Positions 1 to 50,405 of a stretch of DNA of 57,495 bases are shown one piece after another; within the stretch, counting starts at the first letter, position 1, and each line of letters opens with the position of its first letter. Source of the stretch: a virus (taxonomy: Duplodnaviria; Caudoviricetes). The stretch covers positions 1-57,495 of IMG/VR virus record IMGVR_UViG_3300034071_002361, one strand, 5' to 3'. A program made the translations under genes and the position numbers. Under the pieces are notes generated by a model. It was given only the letters and a program-made list of their open reading frames with translations, did no database searches and was not told where the DNA came from.

Positions 1-523
1 TGCTGACCCAGTAGTTGCGGAACTTCTCGACCTCGTCGTCGAGCTGTGCGCCCCAGAGGCCTCGGCTGTGGGCCGTCACGATCAGGTCTTGGCTCGGCAC
101 CCAGTCGGCCGGTAGGCGCGTCCCTCGGGCGCGCCCTGACGGTTCAGTGATGGTTCCCTGATGGTTACTTGTAGGTTCTGGGGGCACCACGTGCCGGGGT
201 GGGGGGCACGTCGTGCCGGGGTGGGGGGCACGTCGTGCCGGGGTGGGGGGCATCTCCTGCCGGGGGGCACCACGTGCCGGGGTCACGGTGTAGTAGCTCG
301 ACCTGCCCTCCCGGGCGTGGGTCTTCAGGTAGCCACCATCCTCGAGGTCGCGCAGCGCGTTCCTGACGGCGCGCTCACTGAGGCAGGTGCGCCGGGTCAG
401 GGATGCCACGGACGGCCAGCAGACGCCTTCGTCGTTGGCCTGATCGGCAAGAGAGATGATGACGAGCTTCTGCGTGGCGCTGAGTTCCAGCGGCCAGCAG
501 GCACTGAGAATGAAGGTGCTCAA
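1..523 (-). CDS. Phage replication initiator (lambda O-like, N-terminal HTH), 5' part; runs off the window start
   Basis: Manual translation from TTG at 523 (GGAG SD upstream): LSTFILSACWPLELSATQKLVIISLADQANDEGVCWPSVASLTRRTCLSERAVRNAL...RGTRLPADW...EKFRNYWVS; no stop before base 1; contains iterons. Confidence 0.85.
   Translation of the reverse strand, partial: MSTFILSACWPLELSATQKLVIISLADQANDEGVCWPSVASLTRRTCLSERAVRNALRDLEDGGYLKTHAREGRSSYYTVTPARGAPRQEMPPTPARRAPHPGTTCPPPRHVVPPEPTSNHQGTITEPSGRARGTRLPADWVPSQDLIVTAHSRGLWGAQLDDEVEKFRNYWVS
181..283. repeat. Replication-origin iterons (22-bp G-rich tandem units) inside the initiator gene
   Basis: Repeated ggggggcacgtcgtgccggggt units with an internal GGCAC-N3-GTGCC palindrome; position is analogous to lambda ori inside O. 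Confidence 0.75.
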
Positions 524-651
524 GATGTTCTCCACGTGGCCCATGATGGGCCGCTATCGCCAACCCCGTGGGCTAGGGCTGTCCTCGGCTCATGACTTCC
601 GAGTTAGGCGTGCGGCAAACGCGATCGCTCGCGCTGTGGCGGATGATGCGG

Positions 652-927
652 TCAGGCCGCGGCATTGTCCAGCGCCGTGATCTCTGCCGACTCTTTGTCG
701 GCCCGCTCCTGTCCGTGGTACTTCGCGATGAGCCCGATGTAGACCTCGGTCGCGCTGTAGTTGTCCTCCCGGCTCGGCGTGTCGCCGCCCATGCCGGGGC
801 TGAATTGCATGCGGTGGAGCTGCTCGGCGATGCCCCTGCCCTTGGCGCGGCAGCGGTCGGTGAGGCCGCCGCTGTGCCACGAGCAGTAGAACATCCAGTA
901 GCCCATGCAGATGTCGAAGCGATCCAT
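652..927 (-). CDS. Hypothetical early protein
   Basis: MDRFDICMGYWMFYCSWHSGG...; tightly packed in the leftward operon. Confidence 0.65.
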   Translation of the reverse strand: MDRFDICMGYWMFYCSWHSGGLTDRCRAKGRGIAEQLHRMQFSPGMGGDTPSREDNYSATEVYIGLIAKYHGQERADKESAEITALDNAAA

Positions 928-1232
928 CACGCGCTCCCCATCGCGAGCTGGGCTGCAGCCTTGTCGGCCGAGCCCATGCTGGAGTACATGCAGATCACCC
1001 CGAGCGTGGCGATCTCGCCGGTCTCGGGATCCATGATCCTCAGGGTTCCGGCGCGCTTGCCATTCGGCGGCTGCTCGCTGGTGGCGAAGAGGATCATCCC
1101 GTCGGCGCGGACGTAGCCGCCGCTGCCAAGCTCGGTGCGGAAGAACTTCATCTCGTCGGGGCCGAACCAGTTGGCGCGCTTCCACTTCTCGCGGTGGATG
1201 CGCTTGATCTCGGTCATGGTCATGGTCTTCAT
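927..1232 (-). CDS. Hypothetical early protein
   Basis: MKTMTMTEIKRIHREKWKRANWFGPDEMKFF...; GAGG SD. Confidence 0.7.
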   Translation of the reverse strand: MKTMTMTEIKRIHREKWKRANWFGPDEMKFFRTELGSGGYVRADGMILFATSEQPPNGKRAGTLRIMDPETGEIATLGVICMYSSMGSADKAAAQLAMGSA

Positions 1233-1240
1233 TGCTGTCC

Positions 1241-1573
1241 TCACTTCGCGTCGTGGATGTAGTGCGTTTTGCTTCGATTGTCCTCGAGCCACTGGTTGGC
1301 CAGCATCATTGCCTTGGCGTGCTGCTTGCCGTCGACAACGCAGAGCCACCGCTTGCCGCAGAAAGCGTTGCTGCTGCCGCCGTAGCGCGTGCGGGTCGAG
1401 ATGCCGACGGTCTTGAGCCAGCGCTGCAGCTCGCGGATCTCGTGCTTGACCCGCGGCGTGGGGCAGGGGCTGTCGCTGGCCGTGCCTGTGTCGCTGGCGC
1501 CGGCGATGGCCGGGCCCGGGATGGAGTAGCCACGCCATCCATCGAGGCGGCGGTATCGGCTGGGGATTCGCAT
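1241..1573 (-). CDS. Hypothetical early protein
   Basis: MRIPSRYRRLDGWRGY...; GGAGG SD, overlaps upstream stop. Confidence 0.7.
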   Translation of the reverse strand: MRIPSRYRRLDGWRGYSIPGPAIAGASDTGTASDSPCPTPRVKHEIRELQRWLKTVGISTRTRYGGSSNAFCGKRWLCVVDGKQHAKAMMLANQWLEDNRSKTHYIHDAK

Positions 1574-1875
1574 CACACGCCCTCCATCGCAGCGGCCCAC
1601 TCTTCGCCCATCTTCTCGACGACGAACTCGCGGCTGCCCTTGGTGCCTTCCTGCACGTCGGTGCGAGCCGGGATGACGTTGCCCCAGTAGTCTTTCGCGC
1701 GGCTCGTGCCGAGCATGCAGTAGCCGTTGTCGATGGCGGCCATCATGGCCCGGCCGTAGCTGCCTTGCAGGCTCCAGCACCCGTCGTTGATCGCCTTCTG
1801 GATCGACTTGTAGTAGTCGAGCTGGCTGCAGTCGTTGTCGGTTTCGATGTTGTTGACGTCGTTCACGGTCAGCAT
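1573..1875 (-). CDS. Hypothetical early protein, first gene after promoter P1
   Basis: 100-aa ORF with AAGGAG SD. Confidence 0.75.
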   Translation of the reverse strand: MLTVNDVNNIETDNDCSQLDYYKSIQKAINDGCWSLQGSYGRAMMAAIDNGYCMLGTSRAKDYWGNVIPARTDVQEGTKGSREFVVEKMGEEWAAAMEGV

Positions 1876-1886
1876 GTCGTTCTCCT

Positions 1887-1942
1887 TGGCGGCCCATCCG
1901 CCAGTTCCAGAATCATAGCACGGCCCAGTGCCGTGTTGTCAA
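1887..1942 (-). promoter_or_regulatory. Early promoter P1 with operator and leader hairpin
   Basis: TTGACA (1942-1937), 19-bp spacer containing CACGGC-N5-GCCGTG, TATGAT (1917-1912), then hairpin TGGCGG-ATGGG-CCGCCA before the SD. Confidence 0.85.
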
Positions 1943-1944
1943 GT

Positions 1945-1973
1945 AAAAGAATGGGGCTGGTTTCCCAGCCCCA
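1945..1973 (-). terminator. Intrinsic terminator
   Basis: Minus strand TGGGGCTGG-GAAA-CCAGCCCCA followed by TTCTTTT. Confidence 0.8.
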
Positions 1974-2047
1974 CCCCGCTTCACCGGAGAACCCATCCCT
2001 GCGTTAGGCGCATGTCGACGCCCCCCTACTCCGGAAACCAGAGGCTG

Positions 2048-2311
2048 CTACAGCAGCCCATCCCGCACAAGGTGGTCGCGCAGGTGCTCGACCAACCCGT
2101 CGTAAACCTTCGGCCGGCTGACGTGCAGCGTCTTGGTCGTGCCGCACGGGCACTCGAGGACAACCGCATGCCACGGCGTGTTGCGGTACTCGCCCGGGGT
2201 GCGGACGGTGTAGTCGCGGATCTGGCTTACGCCGAACCCGAGCTTCTCAGCCGCGTGGAGGATCTCGTACCGGGCGCGGTTCGTTGCGTGGTCTTTGCGC
2301 ATCAGGTCCAT
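2048..2311 (-). CDS. Hypothetical protein (CxC motif)
   Basis: 87-aa ORF in a packed operon. Confidence 0.6.
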   Translation of the reverse strand: MDLMRKDHATNRARYEILHAAEKLGFGVSQIRDYTVRTPGEYRNTPWHAVVLECPCGTTKTLHVSRPKVYDGLVEHLRDHLVRDGLL

Positions 2312-2508
2312 CCGAACTGCCCCCTCTCGATTGCCCGCTTGTGAATCCTGATCTGCTCGAGCACGTACTCAGCCCGCTCTCTGGCAGCCGGGTGGTGCAT
2401 GTTTTCGCTGCCGTTGGCCAGCTTGTTGTTGGACTTGCGGATTGTTCTGCGCACGTAGGATTCGAGCGCCTCGAACAGCTTCAGCGTTTCGTCGTTGGAT
2501 TGGATCAT
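2302..2508 (-). CDS. Hypothetical protein
   Basis: MIQSNDETLKLFEALESY...; ATGA overlap with upstream gene. Confidence 0.6.
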   Translation of the reverse strand: MIQSNDETLKLFEALESYVRRTIRKSNNKLANGSENMHHPAARERAEYVLEQIRIHKRAIERGQFGWT

Positions 2509-2606
2509 CGCCAGCTCCCGGCGCCGAGCGCCACGTAGAAGAACGCCCACGCCAGCGGCGCAAACAGCACGCCGCCGATGATGTACTTCCAGTCGCCACG
2601 CTTCAT
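2505..2606 (-). CDS. Small membrane peptide
   Basis: MKRGDWKYIIGGVLFAPLAWAFFYVALGAGSWR; one TM segment; AAGGAG SD; 4-bp overlaps at both ends. Confidence 0.6.
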   Translation of the reverse strand: MKRGDWKYIIGGVLFAPLAWAFFYVALGAGSWR

Positions 2607-2872
2607 GGCTTCACTCCTTCGGTCGTCGGTGCAAACAGGTCGCGCAGCTCGCCGGTCTTGCGGTCGATGCGCTCGTGGATCATCCCGACCTCGGCGATGA
2701 GGTCGCGGTCGGCAAGCTCCATCAGGCCGGTGAGGTCGATCCCAGCCTTCCGCTGCGCGATCAGCAGCGAGACGGTGACGTCGATCATGGCGGGCGGTGA
2801 CGCCTCGCCAGACGCAGCCAGAGCCGCCCTGTGGCGCTTCGCCAGCGCCATGGCCCATCGCCCCGGGTTCAT
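2603..2872 (-). CDS. Conserved phage hypothetical protein (DUF6874-like)
   Basis: IDLTGLMELAD...GMIHERIDRKTGELRDLFAP pattern. Confidence 0.55.
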   Translation of the reverse strand: MNPGRWAMALAKRHRAALAASGEASPPAMIDVTVSLLIAQRKAGIDLTGLMELADRDLIAEVGMIHERIDRKTGELRDLFAPTTEGVKP

Positions 2873-3075
2873 CGCGTCACCGCCTTGCTGGCCTCGTCGT
2901 GGGCCTTCAGGGCCATGCGGGCGTACAGCACCTCGCCCGGGCTGTGGCGGCCGAGGCCGCCGGGGATGCGCAGATCCTTGCAGGCCTGCATCAGCGAGGC
3001 GTCGCTCGAGCCGCGGTACGGGACCAGCAGGAGCCGCAGCGCGCGGGCCATCATGTCGGCGGGCGTCTCGCTCAT
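2869..3075 (-). CDS. Hypothetical protein
   Basis: 68-aa ORF with ATGA overlaps. Confidence 0.6.
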   Translation of the reverse strand: MSETPADMMARALRLLLVPYRGSSDASLMQACKDLRIPGGLGRHSPGEVLYARMALKAHDEASKAVTR

Positions 3076-3479
3076 GGGATCAGTCCTGCCTTGCGCGCCT
3101 CGGCCAGCCAGCGGTTGGCGTGCTCGGCCTTGCGCTCGTAGCCCTCATACGCCGAGGCTCCCTCGACGTAGTCGCGGATGACGGCAATGTACTCGCCGGT
3201 CATCTCGCGCAGCGCAATCGCGAGCTGCTTCGCCATGGCCTCGTAGTCCACGACCTCAGCAGGCAGGAGATCCAGCGGGTTTTCTCCGAGCTTGTAGGTC
3301 TTGTCGTAGACGCCATCGGCGGCCCAGCTCTCGAGCGTCTCGCGGCCCTCGCTGTCGGTCATGATTCCGCAGACCGAGTAGTGGCTTTCGGGGTTGGTCA
3401 TGTGGTGGATGATCTTGACGCTCAGGCCGCAGCGGGTCTTGTAGCGCATGCCGACGGCATAGGGGGTGGTCTTGGACAT
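3072..3479 (-). CDS. Hypothetical protein
   Basis: 135 aa, AAGGAG SD; YKTRCG..VKII...W.ADG...NPLDL phage-type motif. Confidence 0.7.
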   Translation of the reverse strand: MSKTTPYAVGMRYKTRCGLSVKIIHHMTNPESHYSVCGIMTDSEGRETLESWAADGVYDKTYKLGENPLDLLPAEVVDYEAMAKQLAIALREMTGEYIAVIRDYVEGASAYEGYERKAEHANRWLAEARKAGLIP

Positions 3480-3490
3480 GGTCGTCTCCT

Positions 3491-3859
3491 TCAGAGGGGG
3501 TAGGTGCCGTCTTCGAACGCGTCGATCATCTTCACGATCAGGTCGCGCTTGGTGTGTGCCGTCTCAGCATCGGGCTGCTTATCCCAGTCAGGCACGGTCC
3601 AGACCCAGCCGGGGAAGTTCGGGTTGGCCACCGGGCGAAGGACCGGGTAGCCGGGGTACTCGTCGGCCGCGGCCTCGAGCGCGGCGTCGATGGCGAGGTT
3701 GTTGCCGTCGTAGTCGTCGGCCATCTCGACCAGTCGGTCGATGACCTCGGTCAGGTTCCACGTCTTGAGCATCTCCGAAGGCGCCGGGTAAATCTGGTCC
3801 TCGGCGGGGAGGCTGTTGTAGACCACGTCGAGCATGGAGGCGAGCTTGGGGTTGTTCAT
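3491..3859 (-). CDS. Hypothetical protein
   Basis: 122 aa, GAGGAGG SD. Confidence 0.7.
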   Translation of the reverse strand: MNNPKLASMLDVVYNSLPAEDQIYPAPSEMLKTWNLTEVIDRLVEMADDYDGNNLAIDAALEAAADEYPGYPVLRPVANPNFPGWVWTVPDWDKQPDAETAHTKRDLIVKMIDAFEDGTYPL

Positions 3860-3862
3860 GGC

Positions 3863-4096
3863 TCAGGCCTCCTCGATCTTGACGTTGACCTCGACGGCCT
3901 CCCACTCGTGGTAGGAGTCCTTCACGCCGTGCATGTCGTTGCTTGCGATCTTGATCATCGCAGCGTGAGCCGAGGCAAAGACGCTGAACAGCTCGGCCGT
4001 TTCGATCTCGGTCGTGATGCCGCCGTGCCACGCGACGTACACGTCGTTGTTGAAGTCCTTCCTGATGGCCGTGGCCTTGACTACGTAACGCTTCAT
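3863..4096 (-). CDS. Hypothetical protein, first gene after P2
   Basis: MKRYVVKATAIRK...; AAGGAG SD. Confidence 0.7.
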   Translation of the reverse strand: MKRYVVKATAIRKDFNNDVYVAWHGGITTEIETAELFSVFASAHAAMIKIASNDMHGVKDSYHEWEAVEVNVKIEEA

Positions 4097-4108
4097 CTCG
4101 CTCTCCTT

Positions 4109-4164
4109 GGGGCGGCCCATCCGCCCCGTTGAGAAGATAATAACACGGCCCAGTGCCGTGTCAA
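4109..4164 (-). promoter_or_regulatory. Early promoter P2 with operator and leader hairpin
   Basis: TTGACA (4164-4159), CACGGC-N5-GCCGTG (4144-4160), TATTAT at 16 bp or TATCTT at 19 bp, hairpin GGGGCGG-ATGGG-CCGCCCC. Confidence 0.82.
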
Positions 4165-5258
4165 GAACCCTGATGAATCTGGATCTGGGCTGCCAGCGCC
4201 TTGTAGGCGTCGGTGCGGCTGGCGCCGCGGCTGGCCAGCTCGGCCAGCGCCAGCTTGGCGGCGTCCAGCAGGCTCATGGCGTTGAAGCGGGCGCGCTCCT
4301 CGGCTTCGAGGCGGGCAGCCTCGGCGGCCTCGGCACGGGCACGCTCCTCGGCCTGAGCGCGCTCGGCGGCTTCCCGGGCGGCGCGCTCCTCGGCAGCCTT
4401 GCGCTCCGCCTCCTGCCGGGCCTCGCGCTCAATGCGCTCGCGCTCCGCGGCCTCGGCCTGCTCCCGGGCACGGATGGCCTCCTGCTCGCGCTGGACGCGC
4501 TCCAGCTCGGCGCGCTGCTCGGCCTCGGCCTTCTCGCGCTCAGCCTTGGCCTGCGCCTCCTGAGCATCGCGGAGGGCCTTCTCGGCCTCCTCGATGCGAG
4601 CCCGCGTCTCCTCCTGCTGCCGGCGCAGCTCGGCCTGCTGGCGCTCCAGCTCGGCGCGCTCGGCCGCCATGCGGGCCTGCTCGGCCTCGTGGGCCTCCAT
4701 TTCGTCGGCCATCTTGCGCAGCTCGGCAGCAGACTCCTCGGCCGCATCTGCATAAGCCCGGCGCTCGACGTCGGTGAACTCCGAAGTATCGGCGCCCTGC
4801 GTGGCAGAGATCAGGCTGGCAAGCTGCTCGCGAACAGCGGCCGAGGATCGACCAACCGAAACGGTGACGAACTGGCGGACCCGGCGCATGCAGGCATCGA
4901 CATGGTCGCGGCGGCGCTGCTCGCGCTCAGCCGCCTCGCGCTTCTCGCGCTCCTTGCGCTCCTGCTCGGCCTTGATCTGGGCGTCGATGGGATTCTCCAG
5001 CGCCTCCAGTTCGGCGGTGATGCGCTTGGCCTCGGCGTCGATCAGCTGGCAGCGGCGCAGCGCCGGCTCTTTGATCTCCTTGCGCTTGGCCTCGAGCGCA
5101 ACGCGCGTCTCGCGGATCTCGCGACGGGCCTCGATGGCCTTGCGCATGCCCTCGGTCGTGGCAACGGGGAAGACGGCGTTCTCGTAGCGCTGGCGGAACT
5201 CGGCCAGAGCCTGCGCAGTCGGGGTGTACTCGGTGATCTCGGTGGTGATGCTGGACAT
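4161..5258 (-). CDS. Coiled-coil protein (E/A/R-rich; DUF1351-like N-terminus)
   Basis: RVALEAKRKEIKEP...IDAEAKRITAELEALENPIDAQIK followed by long EAR heptads. Confidence 0.75.
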   Translation of the reverse strand: MSSITTEITEYTPTAQALAEFRQRYENAVFPVATTEGMRKAIEARREIRETRVALEAKRKEIKEPALRRCQLIDAEAKRITAELEALENPIDAQIKAEQERKEREKREAAEREQRRRDHVDACMRRVRQFVTVSVGRSSAAVREQLASLISATQGADTSEFTDVERRAYADAAEESAAELRKMADEMEAHEAEQARMAAERAELERQQAELRRQQEETRARIEEAEKALRDAQEAQAKAEREKAEAEQRAELERVQREQEAIRAREQAEAAERERIEREARQEAERKAAEERAAREAAERAQAEERARAEAAEAARLEAEERARFNAMSLLDAAKLALAELASRGASRTDAYKALAAQIQIHQGS

Positions 5259-5292
5259 GGCGTATTCCTTCGATCGGGTTGGTTGAATTCGG

Positions 5293-5703
5293 TTACTGGA
5301 CTGCGGCCTTCGCCGTGTCGGAGATCTTCTGCACCATCTCGGTGACCTTGGCCATGTCCGGGTGCAGCTTTTTCAGCTCGTTGTCGAGGTGAAAAATCTC
5401 AGTCCTCAGTTGCTCCAGCGCGGTGGCCGACTTGCGCTTTGCTTCCTTGATCTCGAACAGTCGCTCGCCATCCGCGGGGTCCATGGCGACGCGGGGCGAG
5501 GAGTAGCCGAGGCCAGCGCCGTACTGGTCCCCGCGCGCCGTGATGCGGATCTCGCGGCCGGCGTCGGTCAGGATCAGCATGCCGCCGTCCTTGTAGTGCT
5601 TGATCACCGTGCAGCGCACGTTGGCGCCGGTCGGGCGGCGCGACAGCAGGATGGCTTCGGAGCCGATGGCGTAGTTGAGGTTGATCGCGTTCATGGAAAT
5701 CAT
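5293..5703 (-). CDS. Hypothetical protein
   Basis: MISMNAINLNYAIGSE...; AAGGA SD. Confidence 0.65.
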   Translation of the reverse strand: MISMNAINLNYAIGSEAILLSRRPTGANVRCTVIKHYKDGGMLILTDAGREIRITARGDQYGAGLGYSSPRVAMDPADGERLFEIKEAKRKSATALEQLRTEIFHLDNELKKLHPDMAKVTEMVQKISDTAKAAVQ

Positions 5704-5781
5704 GGTGGTGTCCTTGTGTGGGTTGCCGGTGGCGATGGCCACTCGGTGCTGCCCCCGCGGTGCAGGGGCAGGGCCGAGGGG

Positions 5782-6054
5782 TCAGTCGCGAGGAGTGGTC
5801 TTGCCCTTGAGGTCGACGATGTACGCGCGCTCGCGCTCCGACGTCGGCACTCCGACCGGGACGTAGCTCTCGATCTCGTATGGCGCCTCGATGGGAAGCT
5901 CGACCCGCATGCTCACGACGGCAAGTCCGCCGCGCGGCATGTTCGCCTCGATGATTTTCTTGCCTGCCTGACGCGCGACCTTGCGAAGCGCCTCGTCGCG
6001 GGTGGCGGCAACAGAGAAGCCGATGGCGGTGCTGGCGTAGTAGTGGTGCGACAT
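5782..6054 (-). CDS. Hypothetical protein, first gene after P3
   Basis: MSHHYYASTAIGFSVA...; AAGGAG SD. Confidence 0.7.
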   Translation of the reverse strand: MSHHYYASTAIGFSVAATRDEALRKVARQAGKKIIEANMPRGGLAVVSMRVELPIEAPYEIESYVPVGVPTSERERAYIVDLKGKTTPRD

Positions 6055-6069
6055 TTTGCTCTCCTTGAG

Positions 6070-6127
6070 ATGGCGGCCCATCCGCCATTTCCAGTACATC
6101 ATACACGACACCGGGCCGTGTTGTCAA
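6070..6127 (-). promoter_or_regulatory. Early promoter P3 with operator and leader hairpin
   Basis: TTGACA (6127-6122), 18-bp spacer with a one-mismatch operator (CACGAC-N5-GCCGTG on +), TATGAT (6103-6098), hairpin ATGGCGG-ATGGG-CCGCCAT. Confidence 0.85.
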
Positions 6128-6132
6128 CACCC

Positions 6133-6160
6133 AAAGAAAACCCCGCCGGAGCGGGGTCTT
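6133..6160 (-). terminator. Intrinsic terminator upstream of P3
   Basis: Minus strand AAGACCCCGC-TCCG-GCGGGGTTTTCTTT. Confidence 0.8.
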
Positions 6161-6163
6161 CGA

Positions 6164-7207
6164 TCAGCTCTTGGCTTCAGCCCATGGGCCTAACGATGCG
6201 GGCTCGCCGACCTTCTTGGGCTTGAAGGTGGCGACGAACCCGGGGCGGTCCACATACCAGCGAGACTCGCCCGGCGCCAGCCAGTCGAAGCCCGGGTCGT
6301 TCGAGCCCGGACGCTTGGCCAGCAGGACGTGCTCGTCGGTGCCGTTGGTGATGCGGAACTGCTGGACGCCGGTGAAGGTGCCAATCCCCTCAACAACCCA
6401 AACCTTCGGGGGGAAGCCGTTCTCGTCTCCGCTTCCGGTGACCGCGACGCTGTCTTGCGCCAGCAGCGCGTCGCGATCCGCCTCGAGTGTGGCCAGACGC
6501 TCAGCTCGCGTCGGCCGAGCCGGCATCTCCACCACCGGCACCTCGACAGCGCGGCCAGCCATGCGCGCCTCGTTGCGCTCGGCGATGGCCTCGACCAGCA
6601 GTCCGCGAAGGCGGCGGACCTCGGCCGTCTCCGCGGCGAGCTGTCGCTTGCTGGCCAGTGACGATTGCCACATGCGCCGGGCCTTCTTTCGCGCCTTGGC
6701 CGACTCGCGCCTGAGGGACTCGCTGCGCGATTGCTCGGCAGTCAGCTCAGCCTTCAGTCGGTCGGCCTCGTCTTCTGCCCTGACGCATCGGCTCATCGTC
6801 GACACCAACTCTCGGCCGTTCTCCTCAAGAGCGCCGCGCAACTTGTACACCTCGCTGAATTTCTCGCCGAGCTTGCGCGTATTCTCGGCGCTGGCAGCCT
6901 TGGTCGACTCAAGGAGCGCTCGCGATGCAGTGAGCTGCATGACCAAGCCGTCGACGACGGCTTGCCCGCCGATCAGCCTGCGCCACCAGCTGACGGTCGG
7001 GCCCTCGACGACGTGCAGCACGCCCGGCTTACGCGTCGCATGGTTGCCGCTGGCCATCTGCTGCGCCAGATCGCTGGTCTGTCGATAGATCGCGCTCAGC
7101 CCAGCATCGCGCCTCGCGACATCCTCCTGAGCGCGCTCGTTGCGAAGGCGATCGGCCTCCTCGTTTTGCCCTTGCGTTGGATTCCAGCTCACGGCATGAC
7201 CCTCCAC
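6164..7207 (-). CDS. Hypothetical coiled-coil protein (start may be GTG 7192)
   Basis: 347-aa ORF ending just before the terminator. Confidence 0.65.
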   Translation of the reverse strand: MEGHAVSWNPTQGQNEEADRLRNERAQEDVARRDAGLSAIYRQTSDLAQQMASGNHATRKPGVLHVVEGPTVSWWRRLIGGQAVVDGLVMQLTASRALLESTKAASAENTRKLGEKFSEVYKLRGALEENGRELVSTMSRCVRAEDEADRLKAELTAEQSRSESLRRESAKARKKARRMWQSSLASKRQLAAETAEVRRLRGLLVEAIAERNEARMAGRAVEVPVVEMPARPTRAERLATLEADRDALLAQDSVAVTGSGDENGFPPKVWVVEGIGTFTGVQQFRITNGTDEHVLLAKRPGSNDPGFDWLAPGESRWYVDRPGFVATFKPKKVGEPASLGPWAEAKS

Positions 7208-7392
7208 AGGAAGACGGCGAAGACCACAAGGCCGGCGACGAACAGCAGGTTGCCGGCGAAGAAGACCGCGTCGGCGATGTTGCGGTAGCTCTGCGACGCG
7301 ACATAGGCGATCGGGTTGCTCTTGACGACGCCCTTCGAAAGCGAGCGAAGGATGGCGCCGATGGCGATCAGGATGAATGCGGTAGCAAGCAT
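7189..7392 (-). CDS. Small two-TM membrane protein
   Basis: Two hydrophobic segments; AAGGAG SD. Confidence 0.65.
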   Translation of the reverse strand: MLATAFILIAIGAILRSLSKGVVKSNPIAYVASQSYRNIADAVFFAGNLLFVAGLVVFAVFLWRVMP

Positions 7393-7395
7393 GGG

Positions 7396-7782
7396 TTACT
7401 CCTTGGGGGTGAGGCCGAGTTCTACTCGGGCGGTGTTGAGGTAGAACCGGAGCGTGTCAGCACAGTTGAGCCCGCGCTTTGCCACGTCGTCGGCGTACAT
7501 GCGGTCGGCCAGCGCCTCCGCGCGGCGCTCGAGGCGAGCCCACTCCGCCGCCTTGACCTCCTCGGGGCTCGCGGCGGGGGCAGGGACGCGGTGCAGGTGG
7601 CTGTCCACCACCGCCCGCTCCAGCATCTCGAGCCGCTCCAGTGCGGTGCAGACCTCGTTGCGCAGGGCGATGGCTTCGGCCTGCCGCTGCATCTGGTCCG
7701 GGCTGTGGGCGCCGTAGCGGTAGAGCGAGGCCCTATCGTCCAGCCCGGCCCACGCCCGCTCGCGCAGCGTCGGCCCGGTCAC
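7396..7782 (-). CDS. Hypothetical protein
   Basis: GTG start overlapping upstream stop (GTGA). Confidence 0.6.
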   Translation of the reverse strand: MTGPTLRERAWAGLDDRASLYRYGAHSPDQMQRQAEAIALRNEVCTALERLEMLERAVVDSHLHRVPAPAASPEEVKAAEWARLERRAEALADRMYADDVAKRGLNCADTLRFYLNTARVELGLTPKE

Positions 7783-9269
7783 GCCGCACCGCCCTTGCCG
7801 TAGCCGGCGGCGATAATCAGCTCGGCCGCCTTGCGGCACGTCTCGAGCGTCGGCTTCAGGCCTGCGCCGCACGTAGCTCCGCCGCCTTCGATCCACTCGC
7901 CGTAGCTGTCCCACGGAGCAGAAGCAGCAAGGCGCCCCGCGACCACGTCGTAGAACAGACGATCGGCCAGCGCGTCGACGTCGACTGCGGTCTTGCGAGG
8001 CTCAGGCGCAGTGGCCCGCACCATCTTCACCGTGTCGCCCTTGGCAATGGGCAGCTCCACGCGGCGCAGCCAGATGCCCTCGTTGCGGATGGACTGTCCA
8101 GACGCTTGGTCGTACCGGATGAAGCTCGCGAACCAGCGCCCATCGTCAGCCAGCCCGCCGTAGATCTCAGGGGTTCGGATGAGGTCACCCCCGTGCGGGA
8201 ATGGTGAGATCTTGACCTCGCCAAAGTTGCCGCTGGCCCACCAGCTATCGTCCGGAAGGTCGGGCCTCACAGCCATCTGCCCGGGCTTGAAGCCGCGCTC
8301 GCGCGCATCCTCGGAATTGACCTCGTCGACGACCCAGCCCACGAGCGGTGCCGGCGCGCTGCCAAGGCCGCGCGTCTCGAAGTGGCCGGGCGCCATGGCT
8401 TCGTTCCACTCGGCCACCTTGTCGATCACCGGCGCCACGACCGCGTCGCGCGCAGCCTTGGCCCGCAGGTTCAGGTTCTCGGCGCGCTCCCGGGCCAGCT
8501 CGTCGTCCGCCTTGTTGAGCAGGCGCACCGCCTCTTGGGCATCCACGGGCCGGAAGGCGCGGAAGGCCACCATGCCGTGCGGACTGCCGACCACAACGGC
8601 CGACGGCTCGACAGCGCCGACGTGGTAGTTGGCATGCGCCTTCTGCTCCCGGGCCGCCGCGTCGCGCTCCGCGTCGCGCGCAGCCTCCACCGCCTTGAGC
8701 TGGCCCAGCAGCTCGTCGGCCCGATCCCGGTAGTTGCCGACCAGCGTGTTGCTCGCCATGAGCTGCTCGAGCAGGCTGTCCCGGTCCGCCAGCAGCTTCG
8801 CGTAGCGATCCTCGTCGTCCCGGCATTCGGTCCTGACCCCGCTGGGCGAGTGGATGACCACCTTCTCCACGTAGGGCGAGCCGGTCCGGGGATTGGGCGA
8901 GGACATCACCTCGAAGATGGTCGCGCAGCCCCAGCCATTGGGGAGCTGGCGGTTCCTCGGTACGGCCCGCTCAACGGCCGCATCGAAGGCGCCGCTGTCC
9001 ACGTAGGCGTCGATGGTGGCCTTGACCTCGGTCGTGGCCATGACGCGCCCGTCGTGCAGCGGCACGTCCACAGGGGTAAACGACTCCTCCCGCAGCTCGG
9101 CCTGCCGGCCGTCCGGGCCCATGCCTTCCGTCAGCTTGGCCAGCTCCTCGCGTTGACGCTCCAGACGCCCAAGGCACGCGCCCAGCTCGCCGACCGCAGT
9201 CGAGGACTCGCCATTGGCGATAGCCCTCATCGCGTTCCGAATCGAACGCTCGATACCACTCGTGATCAT
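7779..9269 (-). CDS. Large hypothetical early protein
   Basis: 496-aa ORF with strong TAAGGAGG SD; first gene of the leftward arm. Confidence 0.7.
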   Translation of the reverse strand: MITSGIERSIRNAMRAIANGESSTAVGELGACLGRLERQREELAKLTEGMGPDGRQAELREESFTPVDVPLHDGRVMATTEVKATIDAYVDSGAFDAAVERAVPRNRQLPNGWGCATIFEVMSSPNPRTGSPYVEKVVIHSPSGVRTECRDDEDRYAKLLADRDSLLEQLMASNTLVGNYRDRADELLGQLKAVEAARDAERDAAAREQKAHANYHVGAVEPSAVVVGSPHGMVAFRAFRPVDAQEAVRLLNKADDELARERAENLNLRAKAARDAVVAPVIDKVAEWNEAMAPGHFETRGLGSAPAPLVGWVVDEVNSEDARERGFKPGQMAVRPDLPDDSWWASGNFGEVKISPFPHGGDLIRTPEIYGGLADDGRWFASFIRYDQASGQSIRNEGIWLRRVELPIAKGDTVKMVRATAPEPRKTAVDVDALADRLFYDVVAGRLAASAPWDSYGEWIEGGGATCGAGLKPTLETCRKAAELIIAAGYGKGGAA

Positions 9270-9549
9270 TGCCGCCTCCTTACTGGCACCGCGCCAGTTT
9301 CTGTACGCGATTGTGCGCCCATTTCAGGCCGCAAACCAATAGGCCGAAGCTATCGAGATGGGGGAATTGACCCAAAGCTGTGCATCGAGGTGGCAGCATT
9401 GCCGCGCCCTGTATGTGCCCGGTCGCGCCGGTGCGGGGTAGGGGATTGACCGCCCAGTGCTAGCTGCCCAGCCTCGCAGCGCGACCCGTTCACCTCCAGC
9501 CGGAGCAATCGCCTTGCGCCCGACCGCCGCTCTACCGCAGAATCTCTTC

Positions 9550-9620
9550 AGCCGCCCGTTGTTCGCCTCCTTGAACGCAGCGGCTCCGCCCCGGCCGGGC
9601 CCATCCTGCCGGGGCTTTTT
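9550..9620 (+). ncRNA. Candidate late-leader small RNA (two hairpins, ends at terminator)
   Basis: Possible promoter TTGCGC-18-CAGAAT (9514-9543); hairpin GTTC-GCCTCCTT-GAAC; terminator hairpin with loop containing GGCCCATCC. Confidence 0.4.
9588..9620 (+). terminator. Intrinsic terminator directly upstream of the lysis genes (tR'-like position)
   Basis: GCCCCGGC-N12-GCCGGGGC-TTTTT. Confidence 0.8.
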
Positions 9621-9638
9621 CATGTCTGGGGCACTGGC

Positions 9639-10361
9639 ATGACGCCTCCAGACGGCCTTGAGCTGCTGGCCAAGCTGCCGACGCTCGTCGAGGTCGGCGG
9701 CGCTCTGGCGGCCATCTGGGGTGGCTGGGTGGCATGGCTCCGCTGGGTCTGGCCGAAGTTCAAGGGCACCGGGCGCGCGCTGGCCGGGCTCATGGAGCTG
9801 GGCACCCGGGCCGGCGAGCTGACCGACGGTCTGGGCCGCATGTCCGCCATCGAGGAGTCGCTGGCCGCGGTCAAGCACGAGGTGCTGCCCAATGGCGGCG
9901 GCAGCCTCCGCGACGCGGTAGCGCGCACCGAGGCCAGCGTCAGCCTGTTCCTGAGCCAACAGCGAGCCCGGGACGACGCCGAGGACGAGGTCGTCCGCAT
10001 CGACATCGACGAGACGGGACGCGTCACATGGGTGGCCGCTGCCCTGACCCGCTGGACCGAGCGCACGAGCGACGAGCTGCGCGGCCATGGCTGGCTGAGC
10101 TTCATCCACCCGGACGAGCGCGAGGACGTCGCCGAGGAATACACGCGCTGCATCCGCCACAAGCGCCAGTTCGACTCAGCCTTCCGCCTGATCGATCGCA
10201 GTGGCGAGTCGACGATCGTGCGCATGTCCACGCTGCCGGTGACCATCGTCGTCGGTGGCCGCGAGGAGACGCGCTGGACCGCGATCATGAAGCGCCGAAG
10301 CAACATCCCCGAAGCCTTGGCCGCCCCTGAGCGAGCCCCTGTCCAGAGCCGAGCCCCATGA
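9639..10361 (+). CDS. Membrane protein with C-terminal PAS domain, in the holin position
   Basis: N-terminal TM, PNGGGSLRDAV motif, PAS signature GWLSFIHPDERE...F.SAFRLIDRSGE. Confidence 0.75.
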   Translation: MTPPDGLELLAKLPTLVEVGGALAAIWGGWVAWLRWVWPKFKGTGRALAGLMELGTRAGELTDGLGRMSAIEESLAAVKHEVLPNGGGSLRDAVARTEASVSLFLSQQRARDDAEDEVVRIDIDETGRVTWVAAALTRWTERTSDELRGHGWLSFIHPDEREDVAEEYTRCIRHKRQFDSAFRLIDRSGESTIVRMSTLPVTIVVGGREETRWTAIMKRRSNIPEALAAPERAPVQSRAP

Positions 10362-10966
10362 GCCAGCCTGCCCAACAGCGCCCCGGCCGCGCGCCGCCCC
10401 GCGCTGTCGCTTTCCTCGGTGGCGTGGTCATCCTCGGCGCAACCGGCGCGTGGAACATCATCAGCCGCTGGGAGGGTGGCGGCGAGGTCCACCTCGAGGT
10501 CTACGCCGACCAGCTCGCAGGCGGCCTGCCCACCGTGTGCGATGGCCTCACGCGCCACGTCACCACGACGCCGATCATCGTCGGCCAGAAGTGGACGCTG
10601 GAGCAGTGCGGCCGCGAAGAGAGCATGGCGCTGGAGAAGGTGCAGCAGTCGCTGCTCCGCTGCTTCAAGCGCGTGCCGCCGCAGTCCGTCTTCGACTCCG
10701 CCACCAGCCACGCGTGGAACAACGGCGCGCCCAACACGTGCGCCAGCATCGCCATGAAGCACTGGAACGCAGGCAGCTGGCGCAGTGGCTGCGAGCGCAT
10801 GGCCCGCGATAGCGAGGGCCGGCCGGTGTGGTCCTACGTGCGCACCGGGCGGATGATCCCCGACGGCAAGGGCGGCATGAAGCCCGAGATGCGTTTCGTG
10901 CAGGGCCTGTTCAACCGCCGGCAGGACGAAGCGAACGCCTGCGTCGCCGACATCAAAAACCCCTAG
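10358..10966 (+). CDS. SAR endolysin (GH24 lysozyme)
   Basis: Gly/Ala-rich N-terminal TM; WEG...YADQLAGGLPTVCDGLT catalytic region; GLFNRRQDE C-terminal motif. Confidence 0.88.
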   Translation: MSQPAQQRPGRAPPRAVAFLGGVVILGATGAWNIISRWEGGGEVHLEVYADQLAGGLPTVCDGLTRHVTTTPIIVGQKWTLEQCGREESMALEKVQQSLLRCFKRVPPQSVFDSATSHAWNNGAPNTCASIAMKHWNAGSWRSGCERMARDSEGRPVWSYVRTGRMIPDGKGGMKPEMRFVQGLFNRRQDEANACVADIKNP

Positions 10967-11934: not shown

Positions 11935-12167
11935 GCAGGGTCGTCATCTCCGTCGACGACACCGCCCGGGTCGCGGCCAAGCTGCGCGCGCACTTCGTGC
12001 CCAAGGAGTCGTTCCAGCCTGACGATGGCGTGCTCGGCTTCATCGATGGCTTCCAGATCATGGTGGACGAGGGCTTCATCAAGATGCTCCGCCCCCGCAA
12101 CCCGCACACGCTGTACCGCAAGCGCATCAAGCGCACCGACAAGACCCGCCGAAGGAGCACCCGATGA
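11931..12167 (+). CDS. Hypothetical protein
   Basis: 78 aa with GTGA overlap. Confidence 0.55.
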   Translation: MSRVVISVDDTARVAAKLRAHFVPKESFQPDDGVLGFIDGFQIMVDEGFIKMLRPRNPHTLYRKRIKRTDKTRRRSTR

Positions 12168-15751: not shown

Positions 15752-17209
15752 ATGAGCGGAATCCGCCAAGTAGGCCGCACGGGCGAAATCGCAGACGTCA
15801 ATACCGCAGGCGAGCAGCTTGTCGTGCTTCCGAACGTGCATGAGCGCGTCGGCAGCATTCGCTCCCACAGCGAGAACGACAGCGGCGAGCTGACCGGCGA
15901 CCCGTACCTCAAGTCGGCCGAGACGTCTCGCGACTACCGACTTCGCGTCGGCATCGACACGATGCTGCACTACGACGAGTTCAATGCAACGTCGCACAAC
16001 ACGACGAACAATCGCCACGTCTTCGTCGGCATGACGGCAACGCAGGCTGGCGGCGCGATGCTGCTCAATGCGAACAGCAACTTGACCGCGGCGAACGGCG
16101 TGCAGCACACGACGTGGCGGCAGTTCCCGATCATCGACACTGCGCCGCTCTACACGAACGACACGCTCAGCTTCACCGCTGCGCCGCTGGCCAATCAGGT
16201 CGTGGAGTTCGGCCTGTTCCCGCACGGCACCGGCATCGCAGCGCCGACCGATGGCGTGTACTTCCGCTACACCTCGGCTGGCTTGTTCGGTGTCCTCAAC
16301 TACAACGGCGTCGAAACGTCATCCGCAGCCTTCCCGATTCCCGGCGGCACGATCCCGGCGAACGACACGCGCAAGTACACCATCGTGCCCGGCGAGAAGG
16401 CTGTCGAGTTCTGGATGGACGACAAGCTGCTGGGCGAGGTCGTCGTCCCGGCGGCGAACGGCAAGTTCTGCCTGAGCGGCGCACTGCCCAAGTCGATCCA
16501 GTTCCGTAACACTGGCACCGTGACTGGCGCGCCGGTCATGCAGGCCAAGCTCAACGACTGGAGCGTGTCGCTCGCCGACATCGCCACCAACAAGACGTGG
16601 GCCGGGCAGATGGCCTCGATGGGCCTGTCGGCCTATCAGGGCCAGAACGGCGGCACCATCGGCCAGACCGCCCAGTGGGCGAACACCGCCCTGCCCACCG
16701 CCGCTGCCGGCACCAACACCACCGCGGCGCTCGGCACCGGCCTCGGCGGCATCTTCCAGCTCAACGCTCCGGCCACGTCGGCCACCGACGTCATCATCAG
16801 CTCCTTTGCGAACCCGGTCGGAGGCGTGAACCAGACGCCGCGAACGCTGATCCTGCGTGGCGTGTGGATCCACGCAGCCAACGCTGGTGCCGCGGTCGCC
16901 ACCACGCCGACGACATACGCCCTCGCCTGTGCGTTCGGCCACACCGCGCTGACGCTGGCCACCACCGAGACGGCATCGTTCGCCACTGCGACGGCCAAGG
17001 CTCCGCGCCGCATGCCGCTGGGCATCATGTCGTTCCCGGTTGGCGCGCCCATCGGCGCAATCGCCAACGCCGTGCAGGTGGACTTCGAGGCCCCTGTCGT
17101 CGTCAACCCCGGCGAGTTCGTGGCCATCGTGGCCAAGATCCTCACCGGCACCGCGACCGCCTCGCAGGTCACGCAGTTCGTGATCGGCTTCAACGGCTAC
17201 TGGGAGTAA
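15752..17209 (+). CDS. Virion structural protein, beta-rich (receptor-binding candidate)
   Basis: 485 aa, T/A/G-rich; GAGG SD; lies in the fibre cluster. Confidence 0.65.
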   Translation: MSGIRQVGRTGEIADVNTAGEQLVVLPNVHERVGSIRSHSENDSGELTGDPYLKSAETSRDYRLRVGIDTMLHYDEFNATSHNTTNNRHVFVGMTATQAGGAMLLNANSNLTAANGVQHTTWRQFPIIDTAPLYTNDTLSFTAAPLANQVVEFGLFPHGTGIAAPTDGVYFRYTSAGLFGVLNYNGVETSSAAFPIPGGTIPANDTRKYTIVPGEKAVEFWMDDKLLGEVVVPAANGKFCLSGALPKSIQFRNTGTVTGAPVMQAKLNDWSVSLADIATNKTWAGQMASMGLSAYQGQNGGTIGQTAQWANTALPTAAAGTNTTAALGTGLGGIFQLNAPATSATDVIISSFANPVGGVNQTPRTLILRGVWIHAANAGAAVATTPTTYALACAFGHTALTLATTETASFATATAKAPRRMPLGIMSFPVGAPIGAIANAVQVDFEAPVVVNPGEFVAIVAKILTGTATASQVTQFVIGFNGYWE

Positions 17210-18407: not shown

Positions 18408-19063
18408 GTACCATCAAGGGCGTGATCCGCCGACGCTCTGGCCCGCCGATCATCGATGACCTCGGGAAGACGTGGGTCGCCACCGGCTCAGCGGTGATCA
18501 CCACCGCGCTATCGAAGTTCGGCACTGGCTGCTTGGACATCAGCAGCGCTTCGGGCGACAGCATCACCACGACATCGGGTATGACTGACTACCAGCTCCC
18601 GTCGAACACCGCGTTCTGCTTCGACTTCTGGCTCTACGTCCCGACGCTAAGCGCTGGCGTGATCTTCACCGGCGAGGGGACGAACGCTGTCGGCCTGAAG
18701 ATGAACGCATCGGGCGCACTCACCCCGCTGGAGTTCGGCGTCGGCGACTACTACACGACGTCGAATGCGCTCGTCGCAAACACATGGCAGTACATCGCGT
18801 TCTTCAGGAATGCGTCGAACGTGTCGAACGTCTGCGTCAATGGTTCGGTGGTTGGCAGCGGAAGCATGCCTTCGTCGTTCGGCACGCCATCCGTGTTCAA
18901 CATCGGCGCGTACTCTGCCGGCGGCGCAGAGAACGCTGCGTGCTTTGTTGACGACTTCCGCTATGCCAAGGGGAATGCCCGGTACACGGGCGCGCACAGC
19001 TCGCCAGTTTCAGAAGCGACCGCGGATACCGGCGTAGTTTCACTGCTTCGATTCAACGCATAG
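18404..19063 (+). CDS. LamG/concanavalin A-like domain protein
   Basis: SKFGTG...F.FDFWLY...NTWQYIAFFR...VNG...IG...VDDFRY.KG.ARYT. Confidence 0.8.
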   Translation: MSTIKGVIRRRSGPPIIDDLGKTWVATGSAVITTALSKFGTGCLDISSASGDSITTTSGMTDYQLPSNTAFCFDFWLYVPTLSAGVIFTGEGTNAVGLKMNASGALTPLEFGVGDYYTTSNALVANTWQYIAFFRNASNVSNVCVNGSVVGSGSMPSSFGTPSVFNIGAYSAGGAENAACFVDDFRYAKGNARYTGAHSSPVSEATADTGVVSLLRFNA

Positions 19064-48516: not shown

Positions 48517-48823
48517 GCCGCTCCTGCCGTCGCTTCTCTGCCAGCTCGACGAGGTCGGCGGGGAAGTGGCGGCAGCCGGCGCATCGCCAGTTCTCCGCCA
48601 TGGGCACGGGGTCGGTGCTGGGATCGCTGGCCCACGACATGCACTTCTGGGTGAAGGCCCATGGGATAAGCGTCACGCGCTGAGTCACATCGACGGTCAT
48701 CGTCTCGATGTTGGTGGCGATGGGTACTCGACCCTCGTTCGCCGGGTAGCTCGCCATTGCCTCGCCGTTGTAGCAGAGCGGGCGCATTGCCGGCCCGCCT
48801 GTGCCTTGCGTCGGGCGCGTCAT
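48470..48823 (-). CDS. Cys-containing hypothetical protein, convergent overlap with the giant gene
   Basis: RPLCYN...IPWAFTQKC...WRCAGCRH. Confidence 0.6.
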   Translation of the reverse strand: MTRPTQGTGGPAMRPLCYNGEAMASYPANEGRVPIATNIETMTVDVTQRVTLIPWAFTQKCMSWASDPSTDPVPMAENWRCAGCRHFPADLVELAEKRRQERPSRPTLRHSPGTSGG

Positions 48824-48993
48824 GTGAGGCCCGCCTTCGCCCGGCGGAACGAGATTTGCTGCCGATGGCACAGCGCCTTCAGCGCGCCGACGGTGACGTC
48901 GTAGTGCTTGGCCACCTCCTTCAAGGTCTGCGTCTTCGCGCGCTCGCGCACGTCGCCGATCTCCGCGGTGGTCCACACAGCACGAGCCCTCAT
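48820..48993 (-). CDS. Small HTH-like protein
   Basis: WTTAEI...TLKEVAKHYDVTVGALKALC. Confidence 0.6.
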   Translation of the reverse strand: MRARAVWTTAEIGDVRERAKTQTLKEVAKHYDVTVGALKALCHRQQISFRRAKAGLT

Positions 48994-49178
48994 GCGCGCA
49001 CCTCGTGCTTGGTGCAGCCAAAGTCGGCAGGCGTGTAGAGCGCGTCGTTGCAATCGCCGCCGTCGATCCACCAGTTGACCTCAACCTGCATGCAGGGGCG
49101 GCGGCCCTGAATGTCTCCACCGCGCGAGTAGTCAATATTCGGGTGCCCCCAGTGCTTGCACGTCTCGCACCTGTTCAT
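48990..49178 (-). CDS. Small Cys-rich protein
   Basis: CETCKHW...C...TPADFGC..HE. Confidence 0.65.
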   Translation of the reverse strand: MNRCETCKHWGHPNIDYSRGGDIQGRRPCMQVEVNWWIDGGDCNDALYTPADFGCTKHEVRA

Positions 49179-49384
49179 GCGCGCACCGCGAAGCGCGCGG
49201 TGTCCTGCGCTTCCCAGAGTTCGATGGCCTGCTGCAGCGTCGGCATCTTCGCCGTGCGCAGTCCGCACGGGTAGCACTCCAGCAGGTGCTGGTCCCTGCC
49301 GAGGACGTGGTAGTGCTTCGGCTGCTTGCCGCAGCCGGGGCATCCGGCAAGCGTGCCCTCGATCTTGATCTGGCGTTGGATCAT
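49175..49384 (-). CDS. Lar-like (restriction alleviation) zinc-finger protein
   Basis: L.GCPGCG.....EC.PCG.......AIELW; AAGGAG SD. Confidence 0.6.
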   Translation of the reverse strand: MIQRQIKIEGTLAGCPGCGKQPKHYHVLGRDQHLLECYPCGLRTAKMPTLQQAIELWEAQDTARFAVRA

Positions 49385-49436
49385 GGTCGTCTCCTTGGGG
49401 TGCCGGGCCAGCTCGTCCTCTGGCCCGGCGTGCTGC

Positions 49437-49649: not shown

Positions 49650-49650
49650 C

Positions 49651-50403: not shown

Positions 50404-50405
50404 GA

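Follow-up and report, generated by a model that had tools for sequence, protein, structure and literature searches.

A two-hairpin unit at the junction of early and late genes

The DNA analyzed here (the window) is the complete genome of an uncultured lake phage (57,495 bp, 67% G+C), in which a two-hairpin unit on the plus strand, at 9514–9620, is complementary through both of its loops to leaders of five genes on the other strand. Minus-strand genes occupy 1–9269 and ~48,600–57495, according to a gene call based on third-position G+C (GC3), and the proteins scanned from this block include a helicase loader, a PDDEXK exonuclease, RecT, a resolvase-like nuclease and a Lar-like protein. The plus-strand block (9639–48516) encodes a PAS-domain membrane-type protein, an endolysin, tail proteins, TerL, a portal/adaptor-like protein and a 3453-aa polyvalent protein. 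Because the gene blocks diverge on either side of it, we regard 9270–9638 as a divergent junction between early-type and late-type genes. We propose from sequence, and with somewhat less than even confidence, that the unit in this junction specifies a trans-acting late-leader antisense RNA directed against the five early leaders. The unit has three parts:

9514–9543, plus strand: candidate late-leader promoter, with TTGCGC (9514–9519), an 18-nt spacer and CAGAAT (9538–9543)
9550–9585, plus strand: hairpin 1 of the predicted minimum free energy (MFE) fold, with an anti-Shine–Dalgarno (anti-SD) hexaloop, CCUCCU, at 9566–9571
9588–9620, plus strand: hairpin 2, of the intrinsic-terminator type, with an outer stem GCCCCGGC/GCCGGGGC, an inner helix CGGG/CCUG (one G:U), the apex CCCAU and a terminal UUUUU

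All of the sequence features that a first-pass annotation of this DNA had placed here were recovered on reading 9514–9639. The segment GCCTCCTT (9565–9572, plus strand) contains the anti-SD of hairpin 1, and GGCCCATCC (9598–9606, plus strand) is the apex region of hairpin 2. The predicted 71-nt RNA (9550–9620) folds into two hairpins with an MFE of −36.4 kcal/mol, both pairing elements lying in apical loops. Hairpin 2 (−21.3 kcal/mol) combines an 8-bp GC outer stem with a weak inner helix, and its GC-rich stem runs directly into UUUUU (9616–9620), as in a Rho-independent terminator; the terminator scan did not list it because its loop is larger than the scan's 8-nt limit. Between the U-run and the first late ATG (9639) lie 18 nt.

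Early leaders share an AUGGG hairpin

The exact 9-mer GGATGGGCC occurs six times in the window, always on the minus strand, at 1891, 4114, 6075, 9598, 51285 and 56646. Its mean count in 100 dinucleotide-shuffled sequences was 0.83, and none of them reached six copies; with one mismatch allowed there was no enrichment (15 found against 23.95 expected). One extra chance copy in 57 kb would thus be unsurprising, and because a single chance copy is plausible, the significance of the copy at 9598, which falls in hairpin 2, rests on its position at a hairpin apex and on its conservation. The remaining five copies each form a hairpin apex between a sigma70-type promoter and an (A)AGGAG Shine–Dalgarno (SD) sequence followed by ATG, so the exact core that the first-pass annotation had reported in five early leaders is present in 5/5:

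1875–1942, minus strand: early leader 1, with TTGACA, the palindrome CACGGC..GCCGTG and TATGAT; hairpin TGGCGG-AUGGG-CCGCCA (1887–1903); AGGAG; ATG at 1875
4096–4164, minus strand: early leader 2, with TTGACA-16-TATTAT and the palindrome; hairpin GGGGCGG-AUGGG-CCGCCCC (4109–4127); AAGGAG; ATG at 4096
6054–6127, minus strand: early leader 3, with TTGACA-18-TATGAT and the palindrome; hairpin AUGGCGG-AUGGG-CCGCCAU (6070–6088); CAAGGAG; ATG at 6054
51260–51335, minus strand: early leader 4, with TTGAAG..TATTCT and no palindrome; hairpin GCUGG-AUGGG-CCAGC (51282–51296); AGGAGGCG; ATG at 51260, of the PDDEXK exonuclease gene
56630–56700, minus strand: early leader 5, with TTGACA, the palindrome and TATGCT; hairpin CAGCGG-AUGGG-CCGCUG (56642–56658); AAGGAG; ATG at 56630, of a 62-aa open reading frame (ORF)

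The same annotation had extended the proposed silencing to all early operons, which goes too far: five units carry the hairpin, and the first minus-strand gene (7779–9269) has a different leader hairpin.

To describe the motif, we aligned 20 leader hairpins centered on the loop, five from the window and the others from the phage contigs G001 (four), G005 (seven), G003 (three) and G007 (one). The G-AUGGG-C apex is invariant in all 20, whereas the stems vary with compensatory double changes at six of the seven pairs, and 91.3% of the alignment cells are paired. The covariation score of 0.717 compares with 0.162 in shuffles (0/500 reach it), and it collapses when the register is slid. The AUGGG leader hairpin is, on this sequence evidence, a selected RNA structure and a well-supported motif. 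It belongs to no Rfam family, the whole 57-kb window being without an Rfam match at the gathering score, and comparison of the leader module with cultured phages returned noise (E ~4).

Palindromes lie between the −35 and −10 elements in four of the five leader promoters (1906–1942, 4137–4164, 6098–6127 and ~56665–56700, minus strand). Their sequence is specific to each phage: CACGGC..GCCGTG in the window, ACGTCC..GGACGT in G001 and CACGAAC..GTTCGTG in G005. Their appearance is that of operator sites at which a DNA-binding protein would control the early operons; we found no gene for such a protein. The suggestion that the RNA confers immunity in a phage without CI is not supported, as these four promoters have operator-like palindromes and nothing shows lysogeny. 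Neither an integrase nor a repressor was present among the proteins scanned, which do not cover all ORFs.

Lone hairpins of the leader type also occur in contigs G006 (18413–18433), G007 (5781–5801), G009 (~19177), G010 (~8452), G011 (~8491) and G012 (~3401 and 34552). Several are followed by an SD and a start codon; the contigs are GC-rich, come from unrelated phages and have no CCCAU partner. The AUGGG hairpin seems to be a widespread, undescribed element of 5′ untranslated regions. In G014, two AUGGG leaders stand back to back over one short divergent promoter region (~4180–4275), and therefore tagged operons lie on both strands there.

Two other identities for the leader hairpin were considered and dropped. 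CsrA-type GGA sites do not fit, the GGA lying outside the invariant apex. Hairpin promoters of the N4 type, for a virion RNA polymerase, came into question because N4-like phages are among the nearest cultured relatives by TerL and a 3453-aa ORF is present. They fared no better: the 3453-aa protein is an LPD38 polyvalent protein without a match to a solved structure, and each leader hairpin lies downstream of a sigma70-type promoter.

The unit is conserved on the late strand of related phages

Relatives were collected by three routes, namely the adjacent PAS protein, a degenerate pattern of the two-hairpin unit and alignment of TerL. Five family genomes have AUGGG leaders (the window, G001, G005, G013 and G014), and every one of them carries the unit on its late strand. 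TerL identity to the window is 59–65% for G001, G005 and G013 and 55% for G014. Each of these four relatives has the same arrangement: first a hairpin with a C/U-rich loop containing CUCC, then a long GC hairpin topped by G-CCCAU-C, and after that a U-run and the first late start codon. The stems of hairpin 1 differ, yet a CUCC-containing loop is kept in 5/5 units; likewise, the G-CCCAU-C apex of hairpin 2 is kept in 5/5 on unrelated stems (outer stems GCCCCGGC, GAAGCCCGG, CCCCGCG, GCGCCCGCC and CCCCGGGAGG). Because hairpin 2 keeps its loop at divergences where non-coding sequence no longer aligns, that loop is apparently under selection. Loss of the loop alongside preserved target loops, the outcome that would have counted against the first-pass proposal, was thus seen in none of the five genomes. 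RNAalifold on a MAFFT alignment of three units recovered only hairpin 2, as hairpin 1 was misaligned.

The terminator-like character is shared as well. Hairpin 2 with its U-run scores −21 to −23 kcal/mol in the window, G001 and G005, and G013 and G014 likewise have the fold and a U-run; in G005 seven U residues follow after one base, and in G001 the terminator is weaker, with U4 after GCC. The apical 4-bp helix of hairpin 2 is offset by a mismatch or internal loop in the window, G001, G005 and G013, and such a weak, offset helix would let the apex open for pairing. G014 instead has a continuous 10-bp stem (11 pairs in one fold). Promoter-like boxes of the form CCTTGCRC-N17/18-CAsmAT occur in the same place, and once per genome, in the window, G001 and G005, and the corresponding position in G014 reads TTGACG-N17-CACCTT.

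In G005, two late-direction genes of the gp49/66 family lie directly upstream of the unit, which excludes an early-strand 'sixth leader' there because it would be antisense to late-direction coding sequence. The U-run on the late strand in all five genomes and the gene order of G005 together fix the strand of the unit as late. This agrees with the first-pass judgment that the copy at 9598 is not a sixth leader, made on the lack of a minus-strand start codon. The gene downstream of the unit varies, and the PAS protein is absent from G013 and G014; because of this variation the unit is best seen as a separate module and not as one gene's leader. Leaders and unit also co-occur: both are found in the five genomes, and neither in G015 (complete) or G016 (75% complete), with the fragments G017 and G018 excluded from the count. 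G015 and G016 have no other recurring hairpin loop that could serve as an alternative pair.

Outside the family the combination recurs: the unrelated contig G003 joins three AUGGG leaders with a single CCCAU hairpin of 11 bp that closely follows a stop codon, and its relative G008 has two AUGGG leaders and two CCCAU hairpins of 12–13 bp. Leaders and CCCAU hairpins are on the same strand in both, without an anti-SD hairpin, and therefore one mRNA could carry complementary 5′ and 3′ loops. The CCCAU hairpins stand at operon ends, at ~11995–12025 in G003 (L069) and at ~10890–10925 and ~16030–16065 in G008 (L117). G006, nominated as a relative by summed tblastx scores, was discarded: 0/8 of its proteins match by tblastn, and the scoring segments were short GC-rich noise.

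The two loops match label and Shine–Dalgarno sequences

Complementarity between the unit and the window leaders is exact at two sites for 5/5 leaders and in the correct antiparallel order, the hairpin 2 apex facing the AUGGG label and the hairpin 1 loop facing the SD. At the loop–loop site each window leader gives a hybrid energy of −18.1 kcal/mol and a net of about −6.6 kcal/mol in an accessibility-aware score. After opening costs, two-site totals for the five leaders range from −7.4 to −11.4 kcal/mol, and from −7.7 to −12.0 kcal/mol when the target segments are chosen slightly differently. We consider it very unlikely that two conserved 7-nt apices are exactly complementary by coincidence.

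The hairpin 1 loop carries genome-specific information. Its match reaches into the genome-specific bases beside the SD, and when the loops were compared with leader SD regions across genomes, the own-genome assignment was the best of 120 permutations (5 × 5 matrix, by mean and by maximum match length). Within the window, matches of at least 7 nt to this loop lie upstream of 7 of the 23 minus-strand genes listed and 0 of the 31 plus-strand genes listed, in a list that lacks the fifth leader gene and in which some start codons are approximate.

Several results weigh against a trans-acting antisense RNA. Pairing energy does not single out the leaders: in a genome-wide, accessibility-aware scan of 2853 sense-strand windows three of them rank 3, 15 and 18, the other two fall below rank 25 and coding windows score down to −18.8 kcal/mol, and when one site per loop is required 211 places qualify, among which the leaders rank 3, 6, 12, 23 and 24. 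The hairpin 2 apex has no own-genome preference beyond its invariant 7-nt core (66/120 permutations), and a 3 × 3 energy matrix gives such a preference for G001 only. No lineage with a changed loop pair was found, so loop–loop covariation is absent. With only five loop nucleotides above a stable GC stem, the leader apex is geometrically ill suited to a full kissing helix. A strand test based on G:U pairs was contradictory, with the window favoring the late strand and G005 the early strand. The promoter proposed in the first-pass annotation, TTGCGC-18-CAGAAT, stands in part: its boxes are conserved in G001 and G005, but they agree with consensus at 8/12 positions only, were unlisted in the consensus scan, and have no counterpart that could be placed in G013.

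The distribution of the motif adds to this side. AUGGG hairpins without a CCCAU partner occur in five unrelated contigs (G006 and G009–G012), of which G006, G010 and G012 are near-complete; because such partner-less hairpins exist, the AUGGG hairpin has some role of its own, with the anti-loop as an add-on where leaders multiplied. The co-occurrence of leaders and unit could go back to one event of gain or loss. The own-genome SD match might in principle stem from gene conversion between leader-like modules; we think this unlikely, because the leader stems within one genome are not homogenized.

For the two-site antisense RNA put forward in the first-pass annotation, conservation of the unit in 5/5 genomes and covariation of its anti-SD loop are therefore on record, whereas leader-specific pairing energy is not. 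The same split appears in the two checks suggested with it, as pairing of 9550–9620 with the leaders is favorable in 5/5 but not top-ranked genome-wide, and covariation in related phages extends to the hairpin 1 loop and the SDs but not to the hairpin 2 apex.

Proposed mechanism and alternatives

We infer from sequence that the RNA is synthesized, terminates at hairpin 2, pairs with the leaders in vivo and acts on them negatively, in the late-to-early direction. A weak sigma70-like late promoter would give rise to a ~70-nt RNA of two hairpins, ending at hairpin 2 ahead of the lysis and late genes; read-through late mRNA, with its identical 5′ end, probably acts likewise. The CCCAU apex of hairpin 2 would dock on the AUGGG apex of a leader, serving as the address, and the CCUCCU(U) loop of hairpin 1 would then cover the adjacent SD. 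This pairing would block ribosome binding and thereby lower the translation, and perhaps the stability, of the first gene in each tagged early operon. Early shut-off would grow as late transcription rises.

The complementarity could instead be incidental to a cis-only late-leader attenuator, in which the terminator gates lysis and late transcription as lambda PR'-tR' does and is either leaky or read through with the help of a phage factor. The match to the early leaders would then be a remnant of a leader module copied in inverted orientation, and the short RNA itself would do nothing in trans. The unit does directly precede the lysis genes, with a strong hairpin and U-run in the window, G001 and G005 and the fold and U-run in G013 and G014; its minus-strand reading resembles a decayed leader (a hairpin and AAGGAGG with no start codon), and a role in cis would sit easily with pairing energies that fail to single out the leaders. 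Terminators need no set loop, however, yet the G-CCCAU-C and CUCC loops are kept in 5/5 genomes while all stems have changed, and the hairpin 1 loop tracks the SD flanks of its own genome. Moreover, no Q-family antiterminator was found among the proteins scanned (many small ORFs were not scanned), and no conserved −10-like pause element was seen by eye in the initial transcribed region of three units. We think this explanation unlikely.

A second alternative, which we judge distinctly unlikely, reverses the direction of control or makes it reciprocal: abundant early leaders would pair with the 5′ end of the late transcript, at the hairpin 1 loop and the hairpin 2 apex, and curb translation of a holin-like gene, or leader processing, until early transcription falls. 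The complementarity and covariation expected are identical to those of a late RNA acting on early leaders. In every genome, the SD and start codon of the first late gene come right after the unit, and 5–7 leader copies per genome would outnumber a single late leader early on. Against this, a loop–loop contact made after hairpin 2 has folded is unlikely to stop termination, and with a variable downstream gene, lysis timing cannot be the sole purpose.

It is also conceivable, but improbable, that no RNA–RNA pairing takes place. A phage or host factor might bind both hairpin classes, or a 7-bp DNA site might be read in either direction, leaving the leader hairpin as a stand-alone stabilizer, translation element or antitermination element. 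Partner-less leader-type hairpins in unrelated phage contigs fit such a role, as does the position of the leader hairpin at the extreme 5′ end of the mRNA, where stabilizing hairpins are known to occur. An RNA-binding factor that recognizes AUGGG would not recognize CCCAU, however; the compensating stems (6/7 pairs) favor a folded single strand over a duplex DNA site, and the anti-SD loop and its covariation would be left unexplained.

We consider it very improbable that the copy at 9598 adds a sixth element to the early strand, as leader or decoy of the 496-aa gene (7779–9269), or that it is complementary to the leaders by chance: its orientation matches the five leaders, AAGGAGG follows on the minus strand, 0.83 copies are expected by chance and the G005 hairpin pairs slightly better on the early strand (G:U replacing A·C), but the minus strand has no promoter-like sequence or operator palindrome, no ATG, GTG or TTG at a usable distance after AAGGAGG and no ORF starting there, promoter boxes and U-run alike belong to the late strand, the element would be antisense to late-direction genes in G005, and conservation in five genomes excludes chance.

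The proposal of a late-leader antisense RNA could be widened into a portable system of RNA addressing, an extension that we find doubtful. Every regulated early operon would bear the label hairpin and one two-loop late RNA would silence them all once late transcription begins, while the leaders would in turn hold the lysis leader back; the unrelated lineage of G003 and G008 would have adopted the loop pair independently, with the anti-label there capping operon-end hairpins. If true, this would amount to a protein-free, reciprocal toggle between early and late expression.

Comparison with known RNAs

Temporal switching in phages is usually credited to proteins, namely repressors, antiterminators, sigma factors and new polymerases, and the phage antisense RNAs known to us each act on one transcript. 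If our proposal is right, a single late-leader RNA addresses a whole set of early operons through a label hairpin and the SD, which would be a compact and evolvable route to early-gene shut-off. Independently of that proposal, the AUGGG leader hairpin is an undescribed RNA motif in several unrelated uncultured phages.

P1/P7 c4 is a phage antisense RNA with two short complementary sites, one of them over a ribosome-binding site. The unit is similar in having two short target-complementary sites, one on the ribosome-binding site, for 5/5 window leaders, a likeness that is one of functional analogy only. Whereas c4 acts on one operon (ant) and belongs to an immunity region, the lake-phage unit faces five or more early operons and precedes late genes. 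Neither C4 (RF01695) nor c4-a1b1 (RF03163) has a gathering-score match in the window, L028 (G001) or L063 (G005), and 9270–9700 has no match to either even at E ≤ 10; four c4-type loci in the same Rfam run scored 69–83 bits.

These loci belong to a family found with the degenerate pattern of the unit, whose 44 matches comprise 34 of this c4-type family, two relatives and eight that are chance-like. The 34 stretches (among L022–L065; for example, L042 463–693) carry CCTTGCGC-N18-CAGAAT followed ~55 nt on by a G-CCCAU-C hairpin, and they lie beside prtR in a Pseudomonas prophage/tailocin region. Among those checked, Rfam C4 was present in 4/4 and c4-a1b1 in 2/4. A link to the lake-phage unit, by homology or by convergence, is possible. 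As further observations on this family, its CCCAU hairpin is the first hairpin of Rfam c4-a1b1, with the C4 antisense RNA after it, and ~1 kb farther downstream the same strand has another CCCAU hairpin. No AUGGG leader partners were found in the parts of the c4-type loci examined.

By position, a parallel is the layout of PR'-tR', for which the unit is a candidate: a −21.3 kcal/mol hairpin plus U5 lies 18 nt before the ATG at 9639, behind promoter boxes that are conserved but weak (8/12). In lambdoid phages a by-product RNA of PR'-tR', StxS, acts in trans as a small RNA (sRNA), on host rpoS and on stx1 (PMC7547250). The unit would be like StxS and lambda 6S RNA in being a short terminated RNA directly upstream of late and lysis genes. 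It differs in that no Q-binding element or pause signal, and among the proteins scanned no Q antiterminator, was found for it, and it is unlike StxS in that its proposed targets are the phage's own 5–7 early leaders, reached via a common hairpin; the lake-phage unit has no sequence or Rfam relationship to StxS. Should the proposal hold, it would add to StxS a second terminator by-product RNA that has acquired a regulatory function.

Two loop–loop contacts are also known from OxyS and fhlA, where one kissing loop is the terminator loop of the sRNA and one lies at the translation-initiation region of the target (PMC11979758). The unit would resemble that pair in making two loop–loop contacts, one via a terminator loop. 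OxyS is a host sRNA with one such target, whereas the lake phage would use a phage RNA against a repeated, conserved address hairpin.

The best Rfam matches for 9541–9624 are all sub-threshold and fall to three families of anti-SD sRNA: anti-hemB (RF02837; 21.4 bits against a gathering score of 49.5), sX13 (RF02232; 15.0 against 50) and Betaproteobacteria toxic sRNA (RF02278; 13.1 against 50). Like these, the unit has a CCUCC loop hairpin followed by a Rho-independent terminator. A second, address-type loop is not known in any of the three. A limited literature search turned up no description of the arrangement, a late-leader RNA set against early label hairpins. The unit thus resembles StxS by position and c4 and OxyS–fhlA by two-site logic, and it matches no described family.

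Neighboring genes and other features of the junction

The genes next to the unit on the late strand are as follows:

9639–10361, plus strand: first late gene, encoding a 240-aa protein that is hydrophobic at the N-terminus and has a PAS domain (PAS_3, E 2.3e-10)
10358–10966, plus strand: endolysin (Phage_lysozyme, E 2.1e-11; phrog_7 endolysin, E 3e-25)

A PAS sensory domain in a protein at the holin position, directly before the endolysin, is unusual. Full-length relatives of this protein, with a single-sequence or an alignment query, were found only in G001 and G005. Its N-terminal part alone has relatives in Mycetocola genomes and other prophages, and these partial matches carried nothing relevant. 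Among cultured phages there was no near-DNA match to the genome and no match to the PAS protein; TerL is at most 42% identical to cultured phages, the nearest of which include N4-like phages. Across contigs of three DNA runs, junction and leaders were free of variants; a look for RNA runs containing the phage returned none.

On the minus strand, the 496-aa protein (7779–9269) yielded no relatives through its sequence. Its gene has a leader hairpin of its own, CTGGC-GCGGT-GCCAG (9273–9300, minus strand), directly before TAAGGAGG and ATG, and G001 has CCAGC-GCCGTT-GCTGG in the same place, with a compensated stem and a loop unlike AUGGG.

The 3453-aa protein (38155–48516, plus strand) has no sequence match to any solved structure, and its PHROG matches are only to families of unknown function. 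An LPD38 'large polyvalent protein' domain is present, as is a stretch weakly resembling GGDEF.

The junction also contains GGGG(A)ATTGACC twice (9363–9376 and 9441–9481, plus strand). The second copy forms TTGACC-N17-CAGCCT, which, read by eye, is found in the G001 junction too; it might serve as a further plus-strand promoter or as a site for a regulator.

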